Position numbers and translations under genes: made by a program. The notes beneath the pieces are model-generated. The model was not told where the DNA came from, did no database searches, and saw only the letters and a program-made list of their open reading frames with translations. A stretch of 34,757 nucleotides of DNA, taken from assembly GCA_964543975.1 (NCBI GenBank), contig CAZJBZ010000002.1, positions 1-34,757 on the forward strand. Reading direction: 5' to 3'. Shown piece by piece: positions 5,646-34,020 of the stretch. This DNA comes from an uncultured Spirochaetales bacterium. Its GTDB lineage: Bacteria; Spirochaetota; Spirochaetia; SPDA01; CAZJBZ01. The first letter of the stretch is position 1. Each line of letters begins with the position of its first letter.

Positions 5646-6473
5646 ATGCTGAAACGTTCAACGGATTCAATCGTTTATACATATATTGTGACCTTCTTTT
5701 TTGCCCTCTTCTTCGCGTTGCCGATTATTTGGATGATCTCTACGGCTTTTAAATCGCAGCTCGAAATATTCGAATCTCCGCCGATTCTTTTTGTAAAGCC
5801 TAAGCTGGTCAATTTCCGTGAGGTTCTTCTCGATCAAAAATTCATGCGCGCGCTCAGGAACAGTGTATTCACGGCGATAGGGACCGTCATTTTGACGGTT
5901 ATCATCGCGGTGCCCGCTTCATATGGGCTGTCCAGATTACGCGGAGCCATAAAAACGAATATCCTTGCATGGCTGCTTCTCACCCGTTCCGCTCCCGGTA
6001 TGATTTACGTGATACCCTATTTTATCGTCTATTCCCGCATAGGGTTGATCGACACGACGTTAGGACTGGTCATAATCAACCTCATTTTTACCATACCGTT
6101 GATGATTTGGCTTTTGCTCAGTTTTTTTGAGGAGATACCGGCAAGCATCGAGGAAGCCGCGTTTGTAGACGGGGCGAGTATATTTCAGGTATTCACCCGA
6201 ATAGCAATCCCGCTTGTCCGATCAGGACTCTCGGCAAGCGCGATTCTCGTCTTTATATTTTCATGGAATGAGTTCCTGTTCGCGCTGATTATCACAAGGC
6301 GAGAAGCAGTTACCGCGCCCATATCAATCGTTAATTTTATGGCGTATGCCGGTACCGAATGGGGTAAAGTTGCCGCGGGTGGTATTTTTATTCTCTTACC
6401 TGTCCTCATATTTTCACTTATAATCAGAAAATACCTCATTCGTGGAATGGCGGCCGGTGCCGTCAAAGAATGA
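5646..6473 (+). CDS. Carbohydrate ABC transporter permease (MalG/UgpE-like)
   Basis: 275-aa membrane ORF with the EAA-loop motif EEAAFVDGASIFQVFTRIAIPL. GGAG lies 8 nt upstream of the ATG. Confidence 0.8.
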   Translation: MLKRSTDSIVYTYIVTFFFALFFALPIIWMISTAFKSQLEIFESPPILFVKPKLVNFREVLLDQKFMRALRNSVFTAIGTVILTVIIAVPASYGLSRLRGAIKTNILAWLLLTRSAPGMIYVIPYFIVYSRIGLIDTTLGLVIINLIFTIPLMIWLLLSFFEEIPASIEEAAFVDGASIFQVFTRIAIPLVRSGLSASAILVFIFSWNEFLFALIITRREAVTAPISIVNFMAYAGTEWGKVAAGGIFILLPVLIFSLIIRKYLIRGMAAGAVKE

Positions 6474-6507
6474 TTTAACAAACATCAAGAGACGAAGGGA
6501 GAAAGTT

Positions 6508-7998
6508 TTGCCGAATAAAAAAAGTACACCTAACATTTTGTGGTTTTGCACCGATCAGCAAAGATGGGATACAATACGCTCATTAGGTAATAAATACATC
6601 AACACTCCAAATATCGATAGACTCTGCAGAGAAGGGGTGGCGTTTCAAAGGGCTTATACACAATGTCCTATTTGTACACCGAGCAGGGCAACATTTTTAA
6701 CCGGCCGATATCCTGCTACACACCACGTTTACAGAAATGGAATTGATTATTTCCCTCCAAGCGAAAAATTAATAACGAAAATGATTTCTGAAAACGGATA
6801 TCACTGCGGATTGGTCGGTAAGCTTCATTTATCGCGTGCTCAGGACAGAGTCGAGATTAGACCTGATGACGGTTATGACGAGTTTTATTGGAGTCAGCAT
6901 CCGTTTCCCGACATCGGGCCGGACGATGATTACCGGGAGTGGCTTCGTAAAAAGCATAATGTCGATCCGTTGGAACTGACGAAGGGACTGAATGCTTCCT
7001 ACGGTGCCGGAGTGCCGACGAAATACCACCATACAACGTGGTGCGGTGAGACGTCGGTCGAGTTTATTAAACGAAACAGCGGCAAACCCTGGCTCCTCAG
7101 TGTCAACTGTTTTGATCCTCATCCTCCGTTCGATCCGCCTGAAGAATATCTGTCAAAATACGATAAAGAAAAACTCCCCTATCCGATATTCCAAGAGAGT
7201 GATATCGACCACCAGAAATTGTTCAGAAATATCGATCAACAGTCGGTAGAAGCGGCAAATCCTTACAGTAATGGATCCGAGGAGGCGGTGTATGATAAAG
7301 AGATCGATTACAGCAATACACATGACAAGCCCCCTCTGAATTACGATGCCCGTGAAGTAAAAGCGTGTTATTATGCTTCGATCGAACTTGTCGACGCGCA
7401 ATTGGGCAAGATGCTGGATGCGCTAGAAGAGACGGGCCAAAGAGAAAATACCGTCATCATTTTCATGAGTGATCACGGTGAATTGTTGGGTGATCACGGT
7501 CTTTTGTACAAAGGATGCAGATTCTATGAATCTCTTGTACGCGTGCCCTTGATCATTGCCGGTACGGAAGAATACCTTGCGGATGTTAGAACGGACGCTC
7601 TTGTCGAGCTGATCGATTGTGCCCCCACCGTATTGGATATCGCGGGTGTCGTAACTCCCTCTTTCATCCAAGGAGAATCGCTCTATAATCTTTTAACCGG
7701 CAAGCATAATATCAATAGACATAAAACGCATGTCATATCGGAGTTCAGCGACACCTTGGGCTTCGACGGGGCCAAGGGAAGCAGAGGCACCATGTATTTT
7801 GACGGTAAATATAAGATGTGCCGCTATCCTAACGAGGGTATCGGCGAGTTGTATGACCTTGAAAACGATCCGAATGAGTTTATCGATCTATGGAACAACG
7901 ATGAATACAAAGATGTAAAAATGGAAATAACCGAAAAACACTTTGACGCCATGATTAATACAATAAGCACCGGAATAGAGAGAACGGGTGATTACTGA
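6508..7998 (+). CDS. Cys-type sulfatase (formylglycine-dependent family) with no signal peptide
   Basis: ORF 6442..7998. I prefer the TTG at 6508, preceded by GAAGGGAG, giving LPNKKSTPNILWFCTDQQRWD. The catalytic signature is CTPSRATFLTGR (C-x-P-x-R). Downstream sulfatase blocks are FMSDHGELLGDHG and the C-terminal LYDLENDPNEF. Confidence 0.85.
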   Translation: MPNKKSTPNILWFCTDQQRWDTIRSLGNKYINTPNIDRLCREGVAFQRAYTQCPICTPSRATFLTGRYPATHHVYRNGIDYFPPSEKLITKMISENGYHCGLVGKLHLSRAQDRVEIRPDDGYDEFYWSQHPFPDIGPDDDYREWLRKKHNVDPLELTKGLNASYGAGVPTKYHHTTWCGETSVEFIKRNSGKPWLLSVNCFDPHPPFDPPEEYLSKYDKEKLPYPIFQESDIDHQKLFRNIDQQSVEAANPYSNGSEEAVYDKEIDYSNTHDKPPLNYDAREVKACYYASIELVDAQLGKMLDALEETGQRENTVIIFMSDHGELLGDHGLLYKGCRFYESLVRVPLIIAGTEEYLADVRTDALVELIDCAPTVLDIAGVVTPSFIQGESLYNLLTGKHNINRHKTHVISEFSDTLGFDGAKGSRGTMYFDGKYKMCRYPNEGIGELYDLENDPNEFIDLWNNDEYKDVKMEITEKHFDAMINTISTGIERTGDY

Positions 7999-9240: not shown

Positions 9241-9748
9241 TTGGCCGGTTATTACGCTATGATCGAGAACCTGGACCACAACATCGGACGTGTCATAGAA
9301 AAACTTCGCGAGAAAGGGATGCTGAATAATACATACGTTATCTTTTTCAGCGACCACGGTGATATGCTCGGCTCTCACGGCCAATTCAGAAAAACCGTCC
9401 CGTACGAGGAAGCGGTGAGGGTCCCTGCTCTCATCAACCATGTTGATATTGCTCCGACCACACTTGGGTTGTGTGATATTGATGTTCCTCAATGGATGGA
9501 AGGGACCGATTATTCGTTTTATCGTCTGTTAGATAAAGAGAATACGAATGAGCCCGACTCCGCGTTTATCCAGTCTGTCGTTGCGACAGGACATCCCAAT
9601 AGCATCGATAAACCGTGGCGGGGTCTTGTTACACGAAACGGCTGGAAATATGTCTGTTTTGAAAACATGCCCTGGCTGCTCTTCAATGCATGAACGATTA
9701 CGCGGATGGATTTCTTCTACCGAAGATACGTTTGCTTTGGATAACTAG
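9241..9748 (+). pseudogene. Remnant of a second sulfatase gene: N-terminal catalytic half missing, internal deletions, frameshifted tail
   Basis: ORF 9241..9693 begins directly after the ROK stop with the mid-sulfatase block AGYYAMIENLDHNIGRVIEKL...VIFFSDHGDMLGSHG and has no CxPxR region. The usual ...PWLLF(D)L.NDP... tail is cut (LLFNA*). A sulfatase-like C-terminal piece (ERLRGWISSTEDTFAL) continues in another frame within ORF 9548..9748. Confidence 0.7.
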
Positions 9749-11900: not shown

Positions 11901-12896
11901 TCAGTTCGGGTCCCCGGCGGTGTAATACTGTTCCGGCTGCAGATCAGCTGAATGGATGTTCTTTTCGACTACGAGATAACGTCGGATTGAATAACACAGT
12001 TGACATTTGGACACGTAGCTATCTTCCGGTGTAAACCCGTACTTCTCTTGCACGTGTGACAGAAGTCCGTCTGTTCCTTTTTTCATCAATAGAAAGAGGA
12101 AAGGATATTTGTCGCTATCGATCGGGGAGCCCAAATCGGTGTGTTCGACGGATAAGCCGGTGCAGAGACCGGGAATATAGTTCCCGTATAAATCGATATG
12201 AAAGTGGGATGTCTCGAACAGTTCGTAACAGCCTCCGCTATTTTCGGCAAGGAGACGGCTTAACGGCTTCGGTTCCATAAAGCGGGAATAGGTTTCGAGG
12301 GCCCGTCCGCGCATGGTAATCCAGTAATTGCGGGGAAGGTTTTCGATATACCCGTCTCCGAACCGTTCTTCGTACTGTTCCAGCGTATGCGGTTTGGACG
12401 GTCCGAACTGCTGCAGATCGGAGAGAAATCGTTCCACCCAGGGAAATATCCCGATGCCCGCTTCTCCTGCCGCTTGTATCACTCCCAACGTCTTGTTAAG
12501 GGGGATGTACTCGTTATGGAAGGGAGAGATGGAAACTAAGATCGTATTCAATCCTGCCTGCCGAAGCTCCTTCAGCCTGTTGACCGCGGTTTTCCGGTTG
12601 GTGTACCAGGAGCAGTTTGTCTCGACGTAATCCAGTCCCATACGTGCCTGCTTAAAAACAGCGAGCACTTTCAAAAGTCCTTCATGATCGAGAAACGGTT
12701 CCCCTCCCCCGATATGAACGGAATAGCAGCCCATTCTTCTCACCGATGAGAGGACCGAGTCTGTAGCAGCTTCATCGATATACTCTTTCGTCCAAAAGGG
12801 GCTGCAGAAATAGAGGCAGTGCCTGCACCGGGAACTGCAGTAGTAGTTGGTCATGAGCCCGCCCGAGTTGAGTCGTTCTATAACAGCTCCTTTCAT
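11901..12896 (-). CDS. Radical SAM protein of unassigned subfamily
   Basis: ORF 11901..13025, trimmed to the ATG at 12896 (GGGAG 5 nt upstream), giving MKGAVIERLNSGGLMTNYYCSSRCRHCLY with the CX3CX2C cluster motif. A GGGEPF glycine-rich motif follows. Extra Cys residues in the C-terminal half (GGC, GLC, KCQLC). I recognised no obvious SPASM Cx2Cx5Cx3C motif. Confidence 0.75.
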   Translation of the reverse strand: MKGAVIERLNSGGLMTNYYCSSRCRHCLYFCSPFWTKEYIDEAATDSVLSSVRRMGCYSVHIGGGEPFLDHEGLLKVLAVFKQARMGLDYVETNCSWYTNRKTAVNRLKELRQAGLNTILVSISPFHNEYIPLNKTLGVIQAAGEAGIGIFPWVERFLSDLQQFGPSKPHTLEQYEERFGDGYIENLPRNYWITMRGRALETYSRFMEPKPLSRLLAENSGGCYELFETSHFHIDLYGNYIPGLCTGLSVEHTDLGSPIDSDKYPFLFLLMKKGTDGLLSHVQEKYGFTPEDSYVSKCQLCYSIRRYLVVEKNIHSADLQPEQYYTAGDPN

Positions 12897-12955
12897 ACCG
12901 TCTCCCGGATTATCTGTTCGGTACAGATAAAAAGCACCTTGGTTTTGGCTTTCAT
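12893..12955 (-). CDS. Unannotated 20-codon ORF (MKAKTKVLFICTEQIIRETV) translationally coupled to the radical SAM gene
   Basis: ATG at 12955, preceded by AGGAGG (12969-12964) at 8-nt spacing. Its TGA stop (12895-12893) overlaps the radical SAM ATG (12896-12894) as ATGA. The strong SD has no start codon at suitable spacing in the radical SAM frame, so it best serves this ORF. Translated by hand; below the ORF-track length cut-off. Confidence 0.5.
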   Translation of the reverse strand: MKAKTKVLFICTEQIIRETV

Positions 12956-12970
12956 TTTGTACTCCTCCTA

Positions 12971-13003
12971 TAAAAAGGCACCGAAGCCTTGTGACGCCTC
13001 GGT
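12971..13003 (-). terminator. Terminator-like hairpin plus U-tract inside the leader of the small-ORF/radical SAM unit (possible attenuator)
   Basis: On the minus strand: ACCGAGGC-gtcacaag-GCTTCGGT (8-bp stem with one G.U) followed by GCCTTTTTATAGGAGG. The U-tract runs straight into the SD. Confidence 0.45.
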
Positions 13004-13027
13004 AACGATGTAATAGTGCATACAATT

Positions 13028-13055: not shown

Positions 13056-13092
13056 CATCCGTACCGTTTTGAAGATCGTTTTACACCGCGGT

Positions 13093-13266
13093 CAGGGATT
13101 CGAAATGTGATCGTAATTTGCTGTGAAAGGTTATGAAGACCGTCAATTTGTTGACGATTTTCTATGCAGATAGGTCTTTTCTATAGCAGAATCATCAAAT
13201 TGACGGTCTCTTATCAATACAATCGTTCACATTTCGAATCCCCAAAGCTTACTTTTCGAATTGCTG
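13093..13266. mobile_element. 174-bp MITE, copy 1, flanked by the 9-bp direct repeat CACCGCGGT
   Basis: CACCGCGGT occurs at 13084-13092 and again at 13267-13275. The left end is CAGGGATTCGAAATGTGA. The right end, reverse-complemented, is CAGCAATTCGAAAAGTAA (14/18 match). A perfect internal copy of the left TIR (tcacatttcgaatcccc) makes a hairpin of about 150 nt. There is no coding capacity. A second copy lies at 33176-33349. Confidence 0.8.
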
Positions 13267-13280
13267 CACCGCGGTACTGT

Positions 13281-14165
13281 TTATGAGAAGCTAATCAGGA
13301 TAACACCAACAAGCATGATGGTCCCGGCGGCTATGTTCCGCCACAGATGTTTTTCCCGAAAGATGAGGCTGCCGAGTATAACGGAGAGGAGTATACTGAT
13401 TCTTTTGACACTGACCGCGTAGGCTACCAGAGTCAGGTTCATGGCCATGAACAGGAAAATCGCCTGCAGATAAATAAGAACTCCGCTTCCGATTACTAGG
13501 GCGAGATGGCGGGTCATTGTCTTAAAAACCGTTTTCAGCCGACGTCTGGCGATGAAATAGACGGTTAAGTAAAGGGAAGAGAGAACTTGAGAAAATGCCA
13601 AGGCAAAAAAGATGGATGAGTTGGCCATCGCCAACTTGAACAGAGGGCCTAAAAAACTAAACAGGAGTGCTGCCACGATCATAAACCGAGGTCCCTTATC
13701 GGTAAAAAGAAGCCGAAACGGCTTTAATACACCGGCACGGGCTTCCGTGATTTTCAGGACGTATGAGCCTAGCGCAATGACCAGCACCCCCGCTAATCCC
13801 AGCAGTGAGGGGACCTCACCTAAAATGAGGAATGAAGTACCGAGGAGGAAAGCAGGGGTGAATGAAGTAATGGGATAGACGGCGGAAACCTCGCCGAAAG
13901 AGAAAGCCATGATCAACGATCCCACGGCAATGACGTCGATAAGTGACGCGCCGATTATCGCGGGATAAAACATCGGTTTTATTTCCGGTATTCCGATTAT
14001 CGACACCACACTCCAGCTGCATACCAGCACAACCAGGAAACCGGAATAGAGCACGGCGAGCCTGCCGGTTACCAGTACCAGTTTACGAGTAAACATGTTT
14101 TTCACGGTTACGAAGAGAGCACTTGAAACAGCAAAAAGAAGCCACAACATTGTCAATACCGCCAA
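13281..14165 (-). CDS. EamA/DMT-family transporter
   Basis: 294-aa protein with about 10 predicted TM helices and two-fold internal EamA-like organisation. The start is uncertain (TTG at 14165 or ATG at 14150). Confidence 0.7.
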   Translation of the reverse strand: MAVLTMLWLLFAVSSALFVTVKNMFTRKLVLVTGRLAVLYSGFLVVLVCSWSVVSIIGIPEIKPMFYPAIIGASLIDVIAVGSLIMAFSFGEVSAVYPITSFTPAFLLGTSFLILGEVPSLLGLAGVLVIALGSYVLKITEARAGVLKPFRLLFTDKGPRFMIVAALLFSFLGPLFKLAMANSSIFFALAFSQVLSSLYLTVYFIARRRLKTVFKTMTRHLALVIGSGVLIYLQAIFLFMAMNLTLVAYAVSVKRISILLSVILGSLIFREKHLWRNIAAGTIMLVGVILISFS

Positions 14166-15136: not shown

Positions 15137-15201
15137 CAGTTGAACAGTGAAGCCGCAGCACGTGAGTTCGAGGATCTTTGTTCACACTTTGCGGGAGAAT
15201 C
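15137..15201 (+). pseudogene. 5'-truncated duplicate of the 3' half of the vapB-like antitoxin gene
   Basis: The 65 nt at 15137-15201 match 15450-15514 with 5 mismatches by hand alignment. It encodes QLNSEAAAREFEDLCSHFAGES versus QLDSESAAREFEDICSHFAGES in the intact gene. Confidence 0.75.
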
Positions 15202-15233: not shown

Positions 15234-15251
15234 CAGCAATTCGAATCCCTT
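15234..15251 (+). repeat. Solo MITE-end-like sequence (both termini collapsed onto the shared TTCGAA core)
   Basis: cagcaattcgaatccctt. Its first 12 nt equal the reverse complement of the MITE copy-1 right end (ttcgaattgctg). Its reverse complement, aagggattcgaattgctg, matches left end plus right end fused (17/18 against cagggattcgaattgctg). Confidence 0.5.
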
Positions 15252-15332: not shown

Positions 15333-15563
15333 ATGAATATTACATTATCTGCGGATGAAGAACTGATCAAAAAGGCCCGTGAATACGCAAAACGGCATAA
15401 TTCTTCTCTCAATAATCTTATACGGAATTATCTCGAACAGATTACCAACCAATTGGACAGTGAATCGGCAGCACGTGAGTTCGAGGATATTTGTTCACAC
15501 TTTGCGGGAGAATCGCCCCCCGGATATCGTTTTAATCGGACTGAAGAATACAAGAGAGGATAA
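15333..15563 (+). CDS. vapB: VapB-like antitoxin (small RHH/DUF6364-like protein)
   Basis: 76-aa ORF, MNITLSADEELIKKAREYAKRHNSSLNNLIRNYLEQI, immediately upstream of a PIN-domain gene. Confidence 0.65.
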   Translation: MNITLSADEELIKKAREYAKRHNSSLNNLIRNYLEQITNQLDSESAAREFEDICSHFAGESPPGYRFNRTEEYKRG

Positions 15564-15571
15564 GGCTCTCT

Positions 15572-15985
15572 GTGGCAAAATACTTTCTCGATACAAACAT
15601 ACTCATATACGCTAACGACAAACGAATTCCTGATAAACAGAAAATGGCGGTACACCTCATTTCTCAACTCTTGAAAGGCGGTGGGGGAGTAGTTTCAACC
15701 CAAGTATTACAGGAGTATGCTCATGTCGCTATGAGTAAACTGGGACAAAAAGAAGAGGTGGTCCTTCGGCAGCTTCATTTTCTTGAGAAGATGGAGGTAG
15801 TTTACCAAACTCCAGCAATGATTCGACGAGCGGTAGAAATAAAAAAAACGTACGGCATCAATTTTTGGGATGCATGTATCGTGAGTAACGCCGAATATGC
15901 CCGTTGCGACATGATCTACTCGGAAGACCTCAATACCGGCCAGTTTTATTCAGGAATACGGATACACAATCCCTTCTCCGGATAA
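15572..15985 (+). CDS. vapC: PIN-domain ribonuclease toxin VapC
   Basis: 137-aa ORF with a GTG start. MAKYFLDTNILIYAND carries the conserved N-terminal Asp. Later acidic positions include ...FWDACIV... and ...YSEDL.... The gene sits 8 nt after the antitoxin stop. Confidence 0.8.
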   Translation: MAKYFLDTNILIYANDKRIPDKQKMAVHLISQLLKGGGGVVSTQVLQEYAHVAMSKLGQKEEVVLRQLHFLEKMEVVYQTPAMIRRAVEIKKTYGINFWDACIVSNAEYARCDMIYSEDLNTGQFYSGIRIHNPFSG

Positions 15986-25362: not shown

Positions 25363-25377
25363 CAGCAATTCGAAATG
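25363..25377 (+). repeat. Solo MITE-TIR-like 15-mer abutting the gatC promoter
   Basis: cagcaattcgaaatg. CAGCAATTCGAA equals the reverse complement of the MITE right end, and ATTCGAAATG equals the left TIR. It is followed by cGGCGCC and then TTGACA. Confidence 0.45.
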
Positions 25378-25384
25378 CGGCGCC

Positions 25385-25423: not shown

Positions 25424-25747
25424 ATGGAAAGAAGGGAGCTGTTTCTAACCGCGGAATTGGCGATGCTCGAATTGAGTGAATTCGAGGTTAAAAAACTTCA
25501 GGAAGCCGTGACTGAGATGCTCGATTATTTCGATAAGATGAACGAAATGGATGTTGAAGATCTCGAACCAACCACCCACGCGTTGGCAAAACATAATCGG
25601 CTGCGAGAGGATATTTCCGGCGAAGCGGTAGAGACTATTCCCGACGGACGGCGCATGGTAATTCACTTACCGGTCGTCGCGGATGCCATACTATCGAATA
25701 GTCCGGAATCCGACGATCGATTTATTACAATACCGAACGTCCTGTAG
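25424..25747 (+). CDS. gatC: Asp-tRNA(Asn)/Glu-tRNA(Gln) amidotransferase subunit C
   Basis: ORF 25385..25747, trimmed to the ATG at 25424 (the longer form begins inside the -35 box). ...[45 protein letters not shown] fits the GatC pattern. Its position is directly upstream of gatA and gatB. Confidence 0.75.
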
Positions 25748-25787
25748 CTTTATCATTCCCGCACCATTACATCATGAGGTTTTTAAA

Positions 25788-27277
25788 GTGACTGTCGATT
25801 TATCCCCTTGGGTAAGGATACTGCGCGACACGGAAATACGCGAGAGGTATCTCTCCTATGTTGCGGAGTGGGAAGAAAAGATACACAGTTTTCTCGAATT
25901 CGATATCGATAAGGGGGTGGGGCTCAGCGTTGGACCCAAAACCGAGAAGGGTGCCGGTCCGCAGGCTGTACCGGTGGGCGGTACAGAAAAAAACGACGAG
26001 TTCGCGGGCATGCCGTTTGCCGTAAAAGACAACATAGCGGTCCAAGGCTTTCGCTTTACCTGCGGTTCAAAAATGCTGGAAAATCTGATTGCTCCTTATA
26101 CGGCGACATGCGTTCAAAAACTTCTCGACGCGGGGGCCGTTGTATTCGGAAAAACGAATTTGGATGAATTCGGAATGGGATCGTCCACCGACAATTCCGC
26201 GCTCTTGCAGACGAATAATCCGTGGGATGTCTCCCGCGTTGCCGGCGGTTCGAGCGGCGGTTCGGCCGCGGCGGTTGCCGCCGGACTGGTGCCCTTTGCC
26301 TTGGGCACCGATACCGGAGGTTCGGTCCGTCAACCGGCGGCTTTTTGCGGAGTATACGGGCTGAAACCGACCTACGGTTCCGTATCGCGATACGGCCTTA
26401 CCGCCTACGCATCTTCCCTGGAAGTACCGGGGATCATCACCAAATCGATCCCTTTGATGGAAGCTGTATTCAAGGTTGTACGAGGGACCGATCCTCTCGA
26501 CCATTCGACGGTCCCCTGCGAACCGGCAGGGCCCTCGGAATCGGAGGAATCGGTTGGTCGCGGCGATGTTGCCCGCGAAGACCGGTGCGGACGATAGGGA
26601 TTCTCTCTTCCCCGCTTTCTCTCGATCCGGATATTGAAAGCGGATATCTTTTGTGCATCGATACGTTGAAAAAGTTGGGTTACGACATCCGTGAGGTGGA
26701 ATTGCCGACTCTGGAATACGTGGTCCCTGCCTATTATACCATTGCGACGGCGGAGGCGAGCGCGAATCTGGCCAGATTCAACGGAATTCGATACGGAGCG
26801 CGGCCGGAAGCGTGTTCCGGACATGAGGAGCTGGTTAAAAAAGCACGAGACCACGGTTTCGGCGATGAGGTGAAACTGCGGATTTTACTCGGCACTTACG
26901 TTTTGCGCTCCGGTTTTCAGGACCAGTACTACCTGCGGGCGCAAAAAATCAGAACCGCCATTCGAAACGATTTTGCATCAATTTTTACCGAAGTAGACGC
27001 GCTGCTCACGCCCGCCTTTCCGACCTCCGCCTTCCAACACGGAAGCGCGGAAATGGACCCGTTCCGGCAAAAACTGGCCGACAAGTTTACCGGGACGGCA
27101 AATTTGGCCGGAATCCCGGCCCTCTCATTTCCCGTCGGTGTAGAGGCGGGGGTCCCCATCGGAATGCAGCTCCTGGCCCCGTTTTTCGCGGAAGAAAAAC
27201 TTTTCGAGGTCGCCGCGCGGTACGCGGAGGTGTATCCTGTGCCCGGTTGCCCCGGCTGCAGTGAGAAGTGGAGCTGA
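25788..27277 (+). pseudogene. gatA: Amidotransferase subunit A (gatA) interrupted by a -1-type frameshift between about 26515 and 26585; either a true pseudogene or a sequence error
   Basis: The N-terminal two-thirds is in ORF 25683..26597 (start probably GTG at 25788): [49 protein letters not shown], the amidase signature. The C-terminal third is in ORF 26222..27277, in a different frame: ...RTIGILSSP...YYTIATAEASANLARFNGIRYG...NLAGIPALSFPVG. The frame-0 stop is at 26595-26597. Confidence 0.8.
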
Positions 27278-33131: not shown

Positions 33132-33175
33132 GGTACCACTATAGTAAAAAAATGTTGTTGTAAAAAGAGTGCGGG

Positions 33176-33349
33176 CAGGGATTCGAAATGTGATCGTAAT
33201 TTGCTGTAAAGGGTTATGAGGGCCGTGAATTTGATGACGATTTTCCCTTCAGAGAGACCTTTTGCAAAGGATAATCATCAAATTTACGGCCTATTATCAC
33301 TACAATCGTTCACATTTCGAATCCCCACAGCTCACATTTGGAATTGCTG
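33176..33349. mobile_element. 174-bp MITE, copy 2, flanked by the 9-bp direct repeat GAGTGCGGG
   Basis: GAGTGCGGG occurs at 33167-33175 and 33350-33358. The copy has the same length and orientation as copy 1, with 149/174 identity by hand alignment and no indels. The first 32 nt and the internal TIR copy are identical to copy 1. The right end, reverse-complemented, is CAGCAATTCCAAATGTGA (15/18 against the left TIR). Confidence 0.8.
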
Positions 33350-33405
33350 GAGTGCGGGCAGGCCTTTCTCCTTTCTAAGCGCCGTCAATTTATCGTCTCT
33401 TTCCC

Positions 33406-34020
33406 TTAACGCTTCCCTTTTCCTATATAGTAAGTTTCAAATGACGGTTTCCTGCTGGCCTTCGGTTTATGGGCTTTGACCGATACAAAAAGGGCTTTCA
33501 TCGAATCGAGAATTTCTTTTTCATCACCCCCTTGAAAAACCTTTATCACCATAGTGCCTCCTGAATGAAGGAGGTTTGCAGCCGCTTCGAGAATACGCGT
33601 AACGAGTGAATAAGAACGGCCGGCATCGACTGTTCTATTTCCTGTTGTAGAGGGTGCGGCGTCACTGAGAATACAATCATACGGTCCCGCCTGCGCCAGC
33701 TGCTTACGGACCGGCCCATCGAAAATGTCGCCTTCGATAAAAAGCGCATTATTAATTCGACCGGCAATTTCCTTACGGATGGGGCCGTCTAAAGGGTTGA
33801 GGTCCACACTCACCACTCCGCCTTGCGTGAGTTTTGAAACGTAGAGCGACCAGCTCCCGGGAGCGGCGCCGATATCCAAGACCCGGTCCTTTTTCCCGAT
33901 GACCGAGTACTTTTGCTGAATTTCCGCCAGCTTATACACCGACCGGGCAGGATAGCCCTCTTTTTTTGCCTTGTGTGTTAGATGATCGCGTGTTCGCTTC
34001 GATCCATGCTTTTTACTCAT
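33406..34020 (-). CDS. rlmE: 23S rRNA (uridine2552-2'-O)-methyltransferase RlmE/FtsJ
   Basis: 204-aa ORF. RSVYKLAEIQQKY, VLDIGAAPGSWS (SAM-binding motif), ILSDAAP, VIKVFQG. Confidence 0.85.
   Translation of the reverse strand: MSKKHGSKRTRDHLTHKAKKEGYPARSVYKLAEIQQKYSVIGKKDRVLDIGAAPGSWSLYVSKLTQGGVVSVDLNPLDGPIRKEIAGRINNALFIEGDIFDGPVRKQLAQAGPYDCILSDAAPSTTGNRTVDAGRSYSLVTRILEAAANLLHSGGTMVIKVFQGGDEKEILDSMKALFVSVKAHKPKASRKPSFETYYIGKGKR

Follow-up and report, generated by a model that had tools for sequence, protein, structure and literature searches.

A 174-bp MITE with 9-bp target duplications in two intergenic spacers of an uncultured Spirochaetales bacterium

Two intergenic spacers of this Spirochaetales DNA each contain a 174-bp element that carries no gene, has inverted ends and is flanked by a perfect 9-bp direct repeat, the sequence of which differs from one site to the other. 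The element is a real MITE, and represents a new sequence family among the ordinary bacterial repeats. It is very probably a gene-less derivative of an insertion sequence (IS), which would be mobilised in trans by a DDE-type transposase whose gene lies elsewhere in the genome. Both spacers lack the element in a close relative. In what follows, the window refers to the whole stretch of DNA that was analysed, 34,757 bp in length, and coordinates are those of the window.

Copies, target duplications and empty sites

Direct reading of the sequence places copy 1 at positions 13093-13266 (+ strand), where it begins CAGGGATTCGAAATGTGA and finishes TTACTTTTCGAATTGCTG. It is bracketed by a perfect copy of CACCGCGGT on either side, at 13084-13092 and 13267-13275, as the original prediction, made from the letters alone, had stated. 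A repeat finder identified one other full copy within the window, and reading of that region showed it to be likewise 174 bp long (33176-33349, + strand) and to lie 20,083 bp from copy 1. Copy 2 is bracketed by a different perfect repeat, GAGTGCGGG, at 33167-33175 and 33350-33358, which confirms the earlier claim of a second copy ∼20 kb away with a 9-bp duplication of its own. The chance of finding a perfect 9-bp repeat at fixed positions is P ∼4e-6 per copy. At 174 bp, the element falls within the size range of prokaryotic MITEs (roughly 50-800 bp). Neither copy has coding capacity; their longest internal ORFs span 24-44 codons, and none of these matches a protein family.

A gap-free alignment of the two copies shows identity at 149 of 174 positions (86%). 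Beyond the duplications, their flanks are unrelated, with 20-33% identity. These unrelated flanks, together with the differing duplications, rule out segmental duplication as the source of the second copy.

Evidence bearing on the history of the two sites comes from a relative represented in Logan run SRR28370467, which was found via exact-cluster look-ups, several window proteins being at least 90% identical. Four contigs of this run (L009, L010, L025 and L026) match the window at 89-95% nucleotide identity. The FtsJ-NusG_II spacer, which harbours copy 2 in the window, is 91 bp long in L010 versus 274 bp in the window, and the difference is exactly 183 bp, the length of the element plus one duplication (174 + 9). 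On the - strand, CCCGCACTC occurs twice at this place in the window, and L010 has TACGCACTC once. The EamA-radical SAM spacer, the location of copy 1, measures 197 bp in L009 versus 384 bp in the window; here the relative has a single related 9-mer, GACGCGGTA, compared to two occurrences of ACCGCGGTG in the window (again on the - strand). When the element and one duplication are excised in silico, both spacers align to the relative, and the junction is free of gaps. Thus, the element is polymorphic for presence and absence at both loci, the relative being empty at each.

These data provide strong evidence for two independent transpositions, which would postdate the split of the window lineage from its closest sampled relative. 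To explain the empty sites otherwise, one would have to invoke two precise deletions, each taking out the element together with one of the two 9-mers peculiar to that locus, and this is far less likely; hence both copies appear to have arrived by transposition after the split. The original prediction had favoured independent transposition over segmental duplication and had proposed a search for the empty site; its reading is supported by the unrelated flanks and the two empty sites, and the alternative that it held would refute it, an ancient structured intergenic region, is defeated by the latter. The comparison involves a single relative at the 90% level, beyond which the best identities fall to 57% for the radical SAM protein and 77% for AspRS.

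Ends, fold and pattern of divergence

The terminal inverted repeats of the element exceed the minimum of 10-15 bp by which a MITE is recognised. When the right end is reverse-complemented and compared with the left end, 15 of 20 positions agree in copy 1 and 16 of 20 in copy 2. In copy 1, the left repeat, CAGGGATTCGAAATGTGATC, is contained in a 32-nt block (13093-13124, + strand) that shows no difference between copies, and the right repeat (reverse complement CAGCAATTCGAAAAGTAAGC) occupies 13246-13266 on the + strand. A 16-mer of the left end, GGGATTCGAAATGTGA, recurs in inverted form inside the element: its + strand occurrence covers 13095-13110 and its - strand occurrence 13227-13242, and the same arrangement is seen in copy 2. 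This inverted occurrence corresponds to element positions 135-150 and is present once per copy; none of 100 shuffles reached 5 matches. It is part of an invariant stretch, 13218-13244 (+ strand; element positions 126-152), that pairs with positions 3-18 and so closes a hairpin of ∼150 nt. The predicted folding energy for positions 3-150 is -60.9 kcal/mol, versus -34.1 +/- 3.6 kcal/mol for shuffled sequences (z = -7.5, both strands), with positions 3-18 paired to 135-150. Within this hairpin, the fold includes a central stem-loop (13137-13209, + strand), the arms of which (13137-13154 and 13192-13209) are separated by a variable loop. The original prediction had described the imperfect inverted ends, a second, inverted and perfect occurrence of the left end inside the element, and a long hairpin, and each could be verified.

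The 25 differences between the two copies are unevenly distributed. There are none among element positions 1-32 (0/32) or 126-152 (0/27), 21 among positions 33-125 (21/93) and four among positions 153-174 (4/22). In other words, the left 32 nt and the internal inverted copy together show 0 differences in 59 positions versus 25 in 115 elsewhere (P = 1.2e-5). Such invariance is as expected for sites needed in mobilisation.

The right side of the element contains two tandem versions of the end motif, ∼22 nt apart, of which the subterminal version is invariant and the terminal version has diverged. Despite the 4/22 differences in this region, the last 9 nt, GAATTGCTG, are conserved between copies. 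A right end in which the terminal copy of the motif is less conserved than the subterminal one is unusual.

In the central stem, where positions 45-62 pair with 100-117, differences between the copies retain or improve pairing. The pair 47/115 changes from A-T to G-C and 52/110 from C-G to G-T; position 45 goes from A-T to G-T, and position 59 from T-T to A-T. The resulting G-T pairs are valid for the + strand alone, and this strand is antisense to the genes on either side. Based on two sequences only, G-T pairing on the + strand can be taken as a hint of an RNA, not as evidence for one.

The route of mobilisation proposed for the element is that of other bacterial MITEs. The transposase would recognise both ends, on the left the invariant 32 nt starting CAGGGATTCGAAATGTGA, and on the right the subterminal copy of the motif, followed by 3 nt and then by the diverged terminal copy ending GAATTGCTG. 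The ends would be joined to target DNA with a 9-bp staggered cut, and repair of the gaps would produce the 9-bp duplication. Both full copies would have been inserted after the split from the closest sampled relative and, in each case, into a spacer between co-directional genes, where the insertion follows a stop codon and closely precedes the promoter of the next gene. The family would already have been present before that split, if the degraded fragments described below are real.

Several properties of the element could be read differently. The strong fold (z = -7.5), the differences in the stem that keep pairing (including the G-T pairs available on the + strand only) and the similar position and orientation of the two copies, each after a stop codon and before a promoter, might be those of a structured intergenic module of long standing, for instance a small RNA gene or a hairpin with a regulatory or terminating role, that was deleted at both loci in the relative. 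This is highly improbable. It needs two exact deletions of the element plus one copy of a locus-specific 9-bp repeat, and the flanks of the two copies are unrelated. Moreover, the element has no Rfam match and no intrinsic-terminator signature on the strand of the flanking genes, and the contigs examined from more distant relatives are without it. Even less credible is an artefact in which a repeat was misplaced during assembly. The window is a whole contig, presumably from a metagenome assembly, and includes a probable frameshift in gatA; however, the copies differ at 25 positions, the 9-mer of each perfect duplication exists once in the relative, and the flanks are colinear with independent assemblies.

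A MITE might also have been co-opted by its host, the hairpin, when co-transcribed with EamA or FtsJ, serving to stabilise RNA, to direct its processing or to insulate adjacent transcription units, and the two copies persisting for that reason. The copies lie 5 and 47 nt past stop codons, upstream of promoters and in the same orientation among co-directional genes, their stem pairing is kept despite 14% divergence, and such roles have been described for other bacterial MITEs (review PMC10969869). On the other hand, two copies share an orientation by chance with a probability of 0.5, purifying selection alone would leave MITEs in intergenic locations, and the requirements of transposition explain conservation of the stem equally well. 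We consider co-option unlikely.

Other classes of small repeat were considered and rejected. IS200/IS605-derived PATEs and REP/BIME sequences have subterminal hairpins, no terminal inverted repeats and no target-site duplication, and depend on a Y1 transposase; the clear inverted ends and 9-bp duplications of the present element argue against both. Tn3-derived TIMEs make a 5-bp duplication and have GGGG ends of ∼38 bp, and IS630-derived MITEs duplicate TA, whereas the element studied here has a 9-bp duplication and CAG ends. Integron attC sites were likewise rejected.

Parentage, further copies and older traces

The left end of the element begins with CAGGG, and the original prediction, which gave CAGGG ends and duplications of 8-10 bp as traits of the ISAs1 family, had suggested an ISAs1-like transposase as the likely mobilising enzyme. 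According to published descriptions, ISAs1-family elements carry inverted repeats 14-22 bp long that start with CAGGG, and they duplicate 10 bp of target (PMC11946415); one of them, ISArsp11, has CAGGGCTGATGCAAAGTCG and a 10-bp repeat (PMC6305408). We surveyed 10 such elements, namely ISEc1 and nine plasmid-borne elements from Proteobacteria and Streptomyces. E. coli yhhI/ISEc1 matches the NCBIfam model NF033564 (ISAs1 family transposase) with 412 bits, and the ISEc1 element spans CAGGGAAAGATC to GATCTTGCCCTG, a length of 1,291 bp. The nine plasmid elements are 1,166-1,441 bp long and have CAGGG ends, with CACGG or CAAGG occasionally found at one end. The duplication was 10 bp in all seven of the insertions in which it could be read (7/7). 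The description of the family in the original prediction is correct, literature and survey both showing CAGGG ends and 10-bp duplications, but no test that was run supports the proposed enzyme.

Against these elements, the MITE has only the left-end pentamer in common with the family. Its right end is CAGCA in both copies, such that CAGGG is present at the left end only. Since genuine ISAs1 members tolerate CACGG or CAAGG at one end, we view the CAGCA end as a departure from the family pattern rather than grounds for exclusion. Its duplication is 9 bp at both sites, as compared to 10 bp in the surveyed members. Finally, past the terminal pentamer, its repeat is no more similar to ISAs1 repeats than shuffled sequence is (mean best score of 6.75/16 versus 6.72 +/- 0.38), although this comparison is low-powered because ISAs1 repeats are very diverse and score 7.18 even among themselves. 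In addition, there is no ISAs1 transposase in the window, and none that can be linked to these ends.

On the side of an ISAs1 origin, CAGGG at the left end is the signature of the family (PMC11946415, PMC6305408), and the repeat of ∼20 nt falls within the published 14-22 nt. In these two respects the MITE resembles ISAs1, ISEc1/H-repeat, ISKpn31 and ISAzs5. Duplications in the family range from 8 to 10 bp in the ISfinder table, and 9 bp lies inside this range. Overall, an ISAs1-family derivative moved by an ISAs1-type DDE transposase is the best single guess as to what the element is, albeit a tentative one; another family that makes 9-bp duplications, possibly undescribed, is at least as likely. 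A more elaborate version of the latter view strikes us as improbable. It holds that the parent IS belongs to an undescribed or unusual lineage with 9-bp duplications, asymmetric CAGGG/CAGCA ends and two tandem motifs on one side, and that the element acts as a mobile module of structured RNA inserting just upstream of promoters, its hairpin being under selection on the + strand transcript or single strand.

Searches for further copies and for a parent IS covered several collections. An exact-word scan of GTDB representative genomes with CAGGGATTCGAAATGTGA gave eight matches, all of 18-21 nt, in unrelated phyla and attributable to chance. The 11 matches obtained with GGGATTCGAAATGTGAWCG in JGI metagenome contigs were each due to chance as well; the contig with two of them (L019) is high-GC coding DNA and not a copy. 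A scan of IMG/VR yielded chance matches only, such matches measuring 16-21 nt across the three collections, and BLASTN against plasmids and phages returned nothing relevant. These exact-word scans required 16-19-mers, so that diverged relatives would escape them. At the protein level, six-frame peptides of the two concatenated copies had no match at E <= 10 among 5.8 billion clustered proteins. A phmmer search of 1.84 billion representatives with a 46-aa open frame of copy 2 gave a single match (P0263), an unrelated protein with 20-aa tandem repeats that was rejected as a relative. Using nhmmer with a two-copy profile, we found no element in contigs L027-L030 of distant relatives (72-77% AspRS identity). 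Neither the window nor the exact-word scans of public collections revealed an autonomous IS or transposase with these ends, and we found no mention of the end sequence in the literature.

Shorter pieces of possibly related sequence were detected in the window and in the close relative. Upstream of gatC in L025, BLAST and nhmmer found CAATACAATCCTTCACATTTCGAAT, in which 25 of 26 nt agree with element positions 123-148. This fragment is followed by TGCGTG, which resembles the element's terminal TGCTG. The right end of the full element has 22 nt between its two TTTCGAAT motifs, and these are absent from the fragment. The window has, at the corresponding place, an 18-nt piece, CAGCAATTCGAAATGCGG (25363-25380, + strand), that contains the exact 12-mer of the element terminus and lies directly 5' of the gatC -35 hexamer, TTGACA; its orientation is ambiguous and its homology to the element uncertain. 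A second 18-nt piece, CAGCAATTCGAATCCCTT (15234-15251, + strand), has the start of the right end fused to the start of the left end via the palindrome TTCGAA, an end-to-end arrangement of which only AATTGCT remains at the corresponding site of L009. The terminal 12-mer, CAGCAATTCGAA, is present at these two sites besides copy 1, and no shuffle matched this count.

Judged from sequence, the pieces upstream of gatC look like an old insertion in the common ancestor that may have decayed differently in the two lineages; neither the fragment nor the 18-nt piece is found in L027 or L028, which belong to more distant relatives. The two 18-nt pieces are possible remnants, perhaps of a deletion across the hairpin between two TTCGAA cores. 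No recognisable duplication accompanies either, and for this reason the case for the piece at 15234 as a remnant is weak. With these included, the family is represented within 35 kb by two intact copies and two possible remnants, and in the relative by one fragment. If the degraded fragments are real, the family predates the split of the window lineage and the relative.

Genomic setting and relation to known elements

Copy 1 has the EamA stop codon on one side and, on the other, the promoter that precedes a 20-codon ORF and the radical SAM gene, which form one unit. The right duplication stops 5 nt short of the EamA stop codon (13281-13283), and a distance of 38 bp separates the left end of the element from the -35 hexamer of the only promoter-like site (13055-13028, - strand). 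Both distances agree with the original prediction. The same prediction held that the insertion parts the EamA stop from a downstream hairpin, which is doubtful: the terminator-like hairpin (13004-12979) is situated past the predicted promoter and, as judged from the alignment, is not conserved in the relative, and hence it is not clearly the EamA terminator. Copy 2 lies 47 nt past the FtsJ stop and 35 nt ahead of the NusG_II start, directly upstream of a promoter-like sequence (TTTACA...TATAGT) that would serve a unit of NusG_II and heptaprenyl diphosphate synthase. Both copies are found between co-directional genes of the - strand, in the same orientation relative to their neighbours. With both copies directly upstream of promoters, the insertions could alter read-through from the upstream genes, a speculative remark, as is any concerning function of the MITE.

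Searches of the element itself for known features gave little. Rfam showed no match at gathering thresholds and only spurious matches to miRNA hairpins (E ∼1). No tRNA was found in the element, and a tRNA-like origin of its TTCGAATCC motif was rejected for want of a T-arm stem. There was no promoter-like site common to the two copies, and on the strand that carries the flanking genes the element showed no intrinsic-terminator signature.

The rest of the window consists of ordinary chromosomal genes. A Pfam scan of its 37 ORFs identified PFK, a sugar ABC transporter, a sulfatase, a ROK regulator, radical SAM, EamA and HAD proteins, a response regulator with an HD domain, toxin-antitoxin pairs, gatCAB, aspS, ApbE, heptaprenyl diphosphate synthase, NusG_II and FtsJ. 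The scan detected no transposase domain in any of the 37, bearing out the earlier remark that the window has no transposase gene. The gatA gene has a probable frameshift. The closest matches to AspRS are metagenomic proteins (72-77% identity); among named organisms they are Marispirochaeta aestuarii (68%) and MAGs of Spirochaetales and Chitinivibrionales. By this protein, too, the source is probably a spirochaete without a cultured representative.

Elements of this kind are known from other bacteria. MITEAba12 of Acinetobacter is 113 bp long, with 16-bp inverted repeats, 9-bp duplications and a known parent, ISAba12 (PMC6382973), and QMITE2 of Coxiella has direct repeats of 7-9 bp, inverted repeats of 23-29 bp and a strong hairpin (PMC10969869). 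A census of MITEs in 183,232 genomes found spirochaetes (Leptospira, Sediminispirochaeta and Treponema) to be unusually rich in them, with ∼145 per genome, mostly in intergenic positions (PMC11602168). The present element shares with MITEAba12 and QMITE2 its size class (113-200 bp), the lack of a gene, imperfect ends of ∼16-29 nt, duplications of 9 bp (or 7-9 bp), a mostly intergenic location and a strong predicted hairpin. It has no sequence similarity to either, however, and differs from both in the extra subterminal copy of its end motif, on one side only. Furthermore, ISAba12 resides in the same genome as MITEAba12, whereas no parent was found for the MITE of the window. Two full copies and remnants in 35 kb fit the richness reported for spirochaetes.

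Correia elements of Neisseria, RUP of Streptococcus pneumoniae and ERIC/IRU of enterobacteria are 100-160 bp long, with inverted ends and long hairpins; they are intergenic and can be co-transcribed with their neighbours. Correia and RUP duplicate TA and use other types of transposase (IS630-like in the case of RUP), and ERIC shows little evidence of recent mobility. The element described here is distinguished from all three by its 9-bp duplication and its lineage-specific insertions.

MITEs of comparable size and with duplications of this length are common, and spirochaetes are known to be rich in them, so the element opens no new question. For annotation, its recognition means that the two spacers are not native regulatory sequence. 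The insertions also provide two presence/absence markers that separate the window lineage from its closest sampled relative, and they mark recent transposase activity in the source genome, a member of a poorly sampled lineage.

Comparison with annotated ISAs1-family elements

For comparison with the family proposed to mobilize the MITE, we used a sample of 10 annotated ISAs1-family insertion sequences (L031 and L032-L041). Target duplications in this sample were exactly 10 bp in all seven readable cases, and CAGGG was replaced by CACGG or CAAGG at one or both ends in three of the 10 elements.

Surroundings of the two MITE copies

MITE copy 2 lies directly upstream of a -35-like element, TTTACA, which pairs with the -10-like hexamer TATAGT of NusG_II (start region TACTATAGTGGTACCATG, 33132-33166, minus strand). 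Because the apparent NusG_II start is located only 7 nt past TATAGT, this predicted promoter suggests that the transcript is leaderless or nearly so. The hairpin at the FtsJ 3' end (CCGTCAATTT...AAATGACGG, 33378-33448) does not belong to the MITE, since a relative carries this hairpin too (L010, 5496-5565). The 10-nt word that it has in common with the central stem of the MITE is probably a chance match.

Near copy 1, a 20-codon ORF with a good ribosome-binding site (MKAKTKVLFICTEQIIRETV, 12893-12955, minus strand) ends in a stop codon that overlaps the radical SAM start codon, ATG, within the tetranucleotide ATGA. The same ORF, with four amino-acid changes, is found in L009, a contig of a relative ~90% identical. 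Between the predicted promoter (13055-13028) and this ORF is a terminator-like hairpin with a T-run (12979-13004, minus strand), a candidate leader, attenuator or EamA terminator, the stem of which, as read from the alignment, is not conserved in L009.

Other loci of the contig

A direct repeat of 65 nt (92% identity) occupies 15137-15201 and 15450-15514, and its upstream copy partially duplicates the 3' end of a small ORF (15333-15563) that adjoins a PIN-domain gene (15572-15985). This partial duplicate is also present in L009, where the counterpart of the small ORF carries Pfam DUF6364. The match of the 150-aa ORF at 9241-9693 to the sulfatase family covers just the middle and C-terminal part of that family. 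The full sulfatase is encoded at 6442-7998, and the short ORF is probably a truncated paralogue of it. The gatA gene (25683-27277) is broken into two ORFs that overlap. In a Pfam scan, the first (25683-26597) corresponds to Amidase positions 44-222 and the second (26222-27277) to positions 239-444. In L027 and L028, contigs of more distant relatives, gatA is one undivided gene of 472 aa; the split is a frameshift or assembly error.

The radical SAM gene and its upstream ORF

The radical SAM protein has ~1,500 homologues in many phyla, the closest with 57% identity. Together, the 20-codon ORF and the radical SAM gene may constitute a small-peptide/maturase pair.
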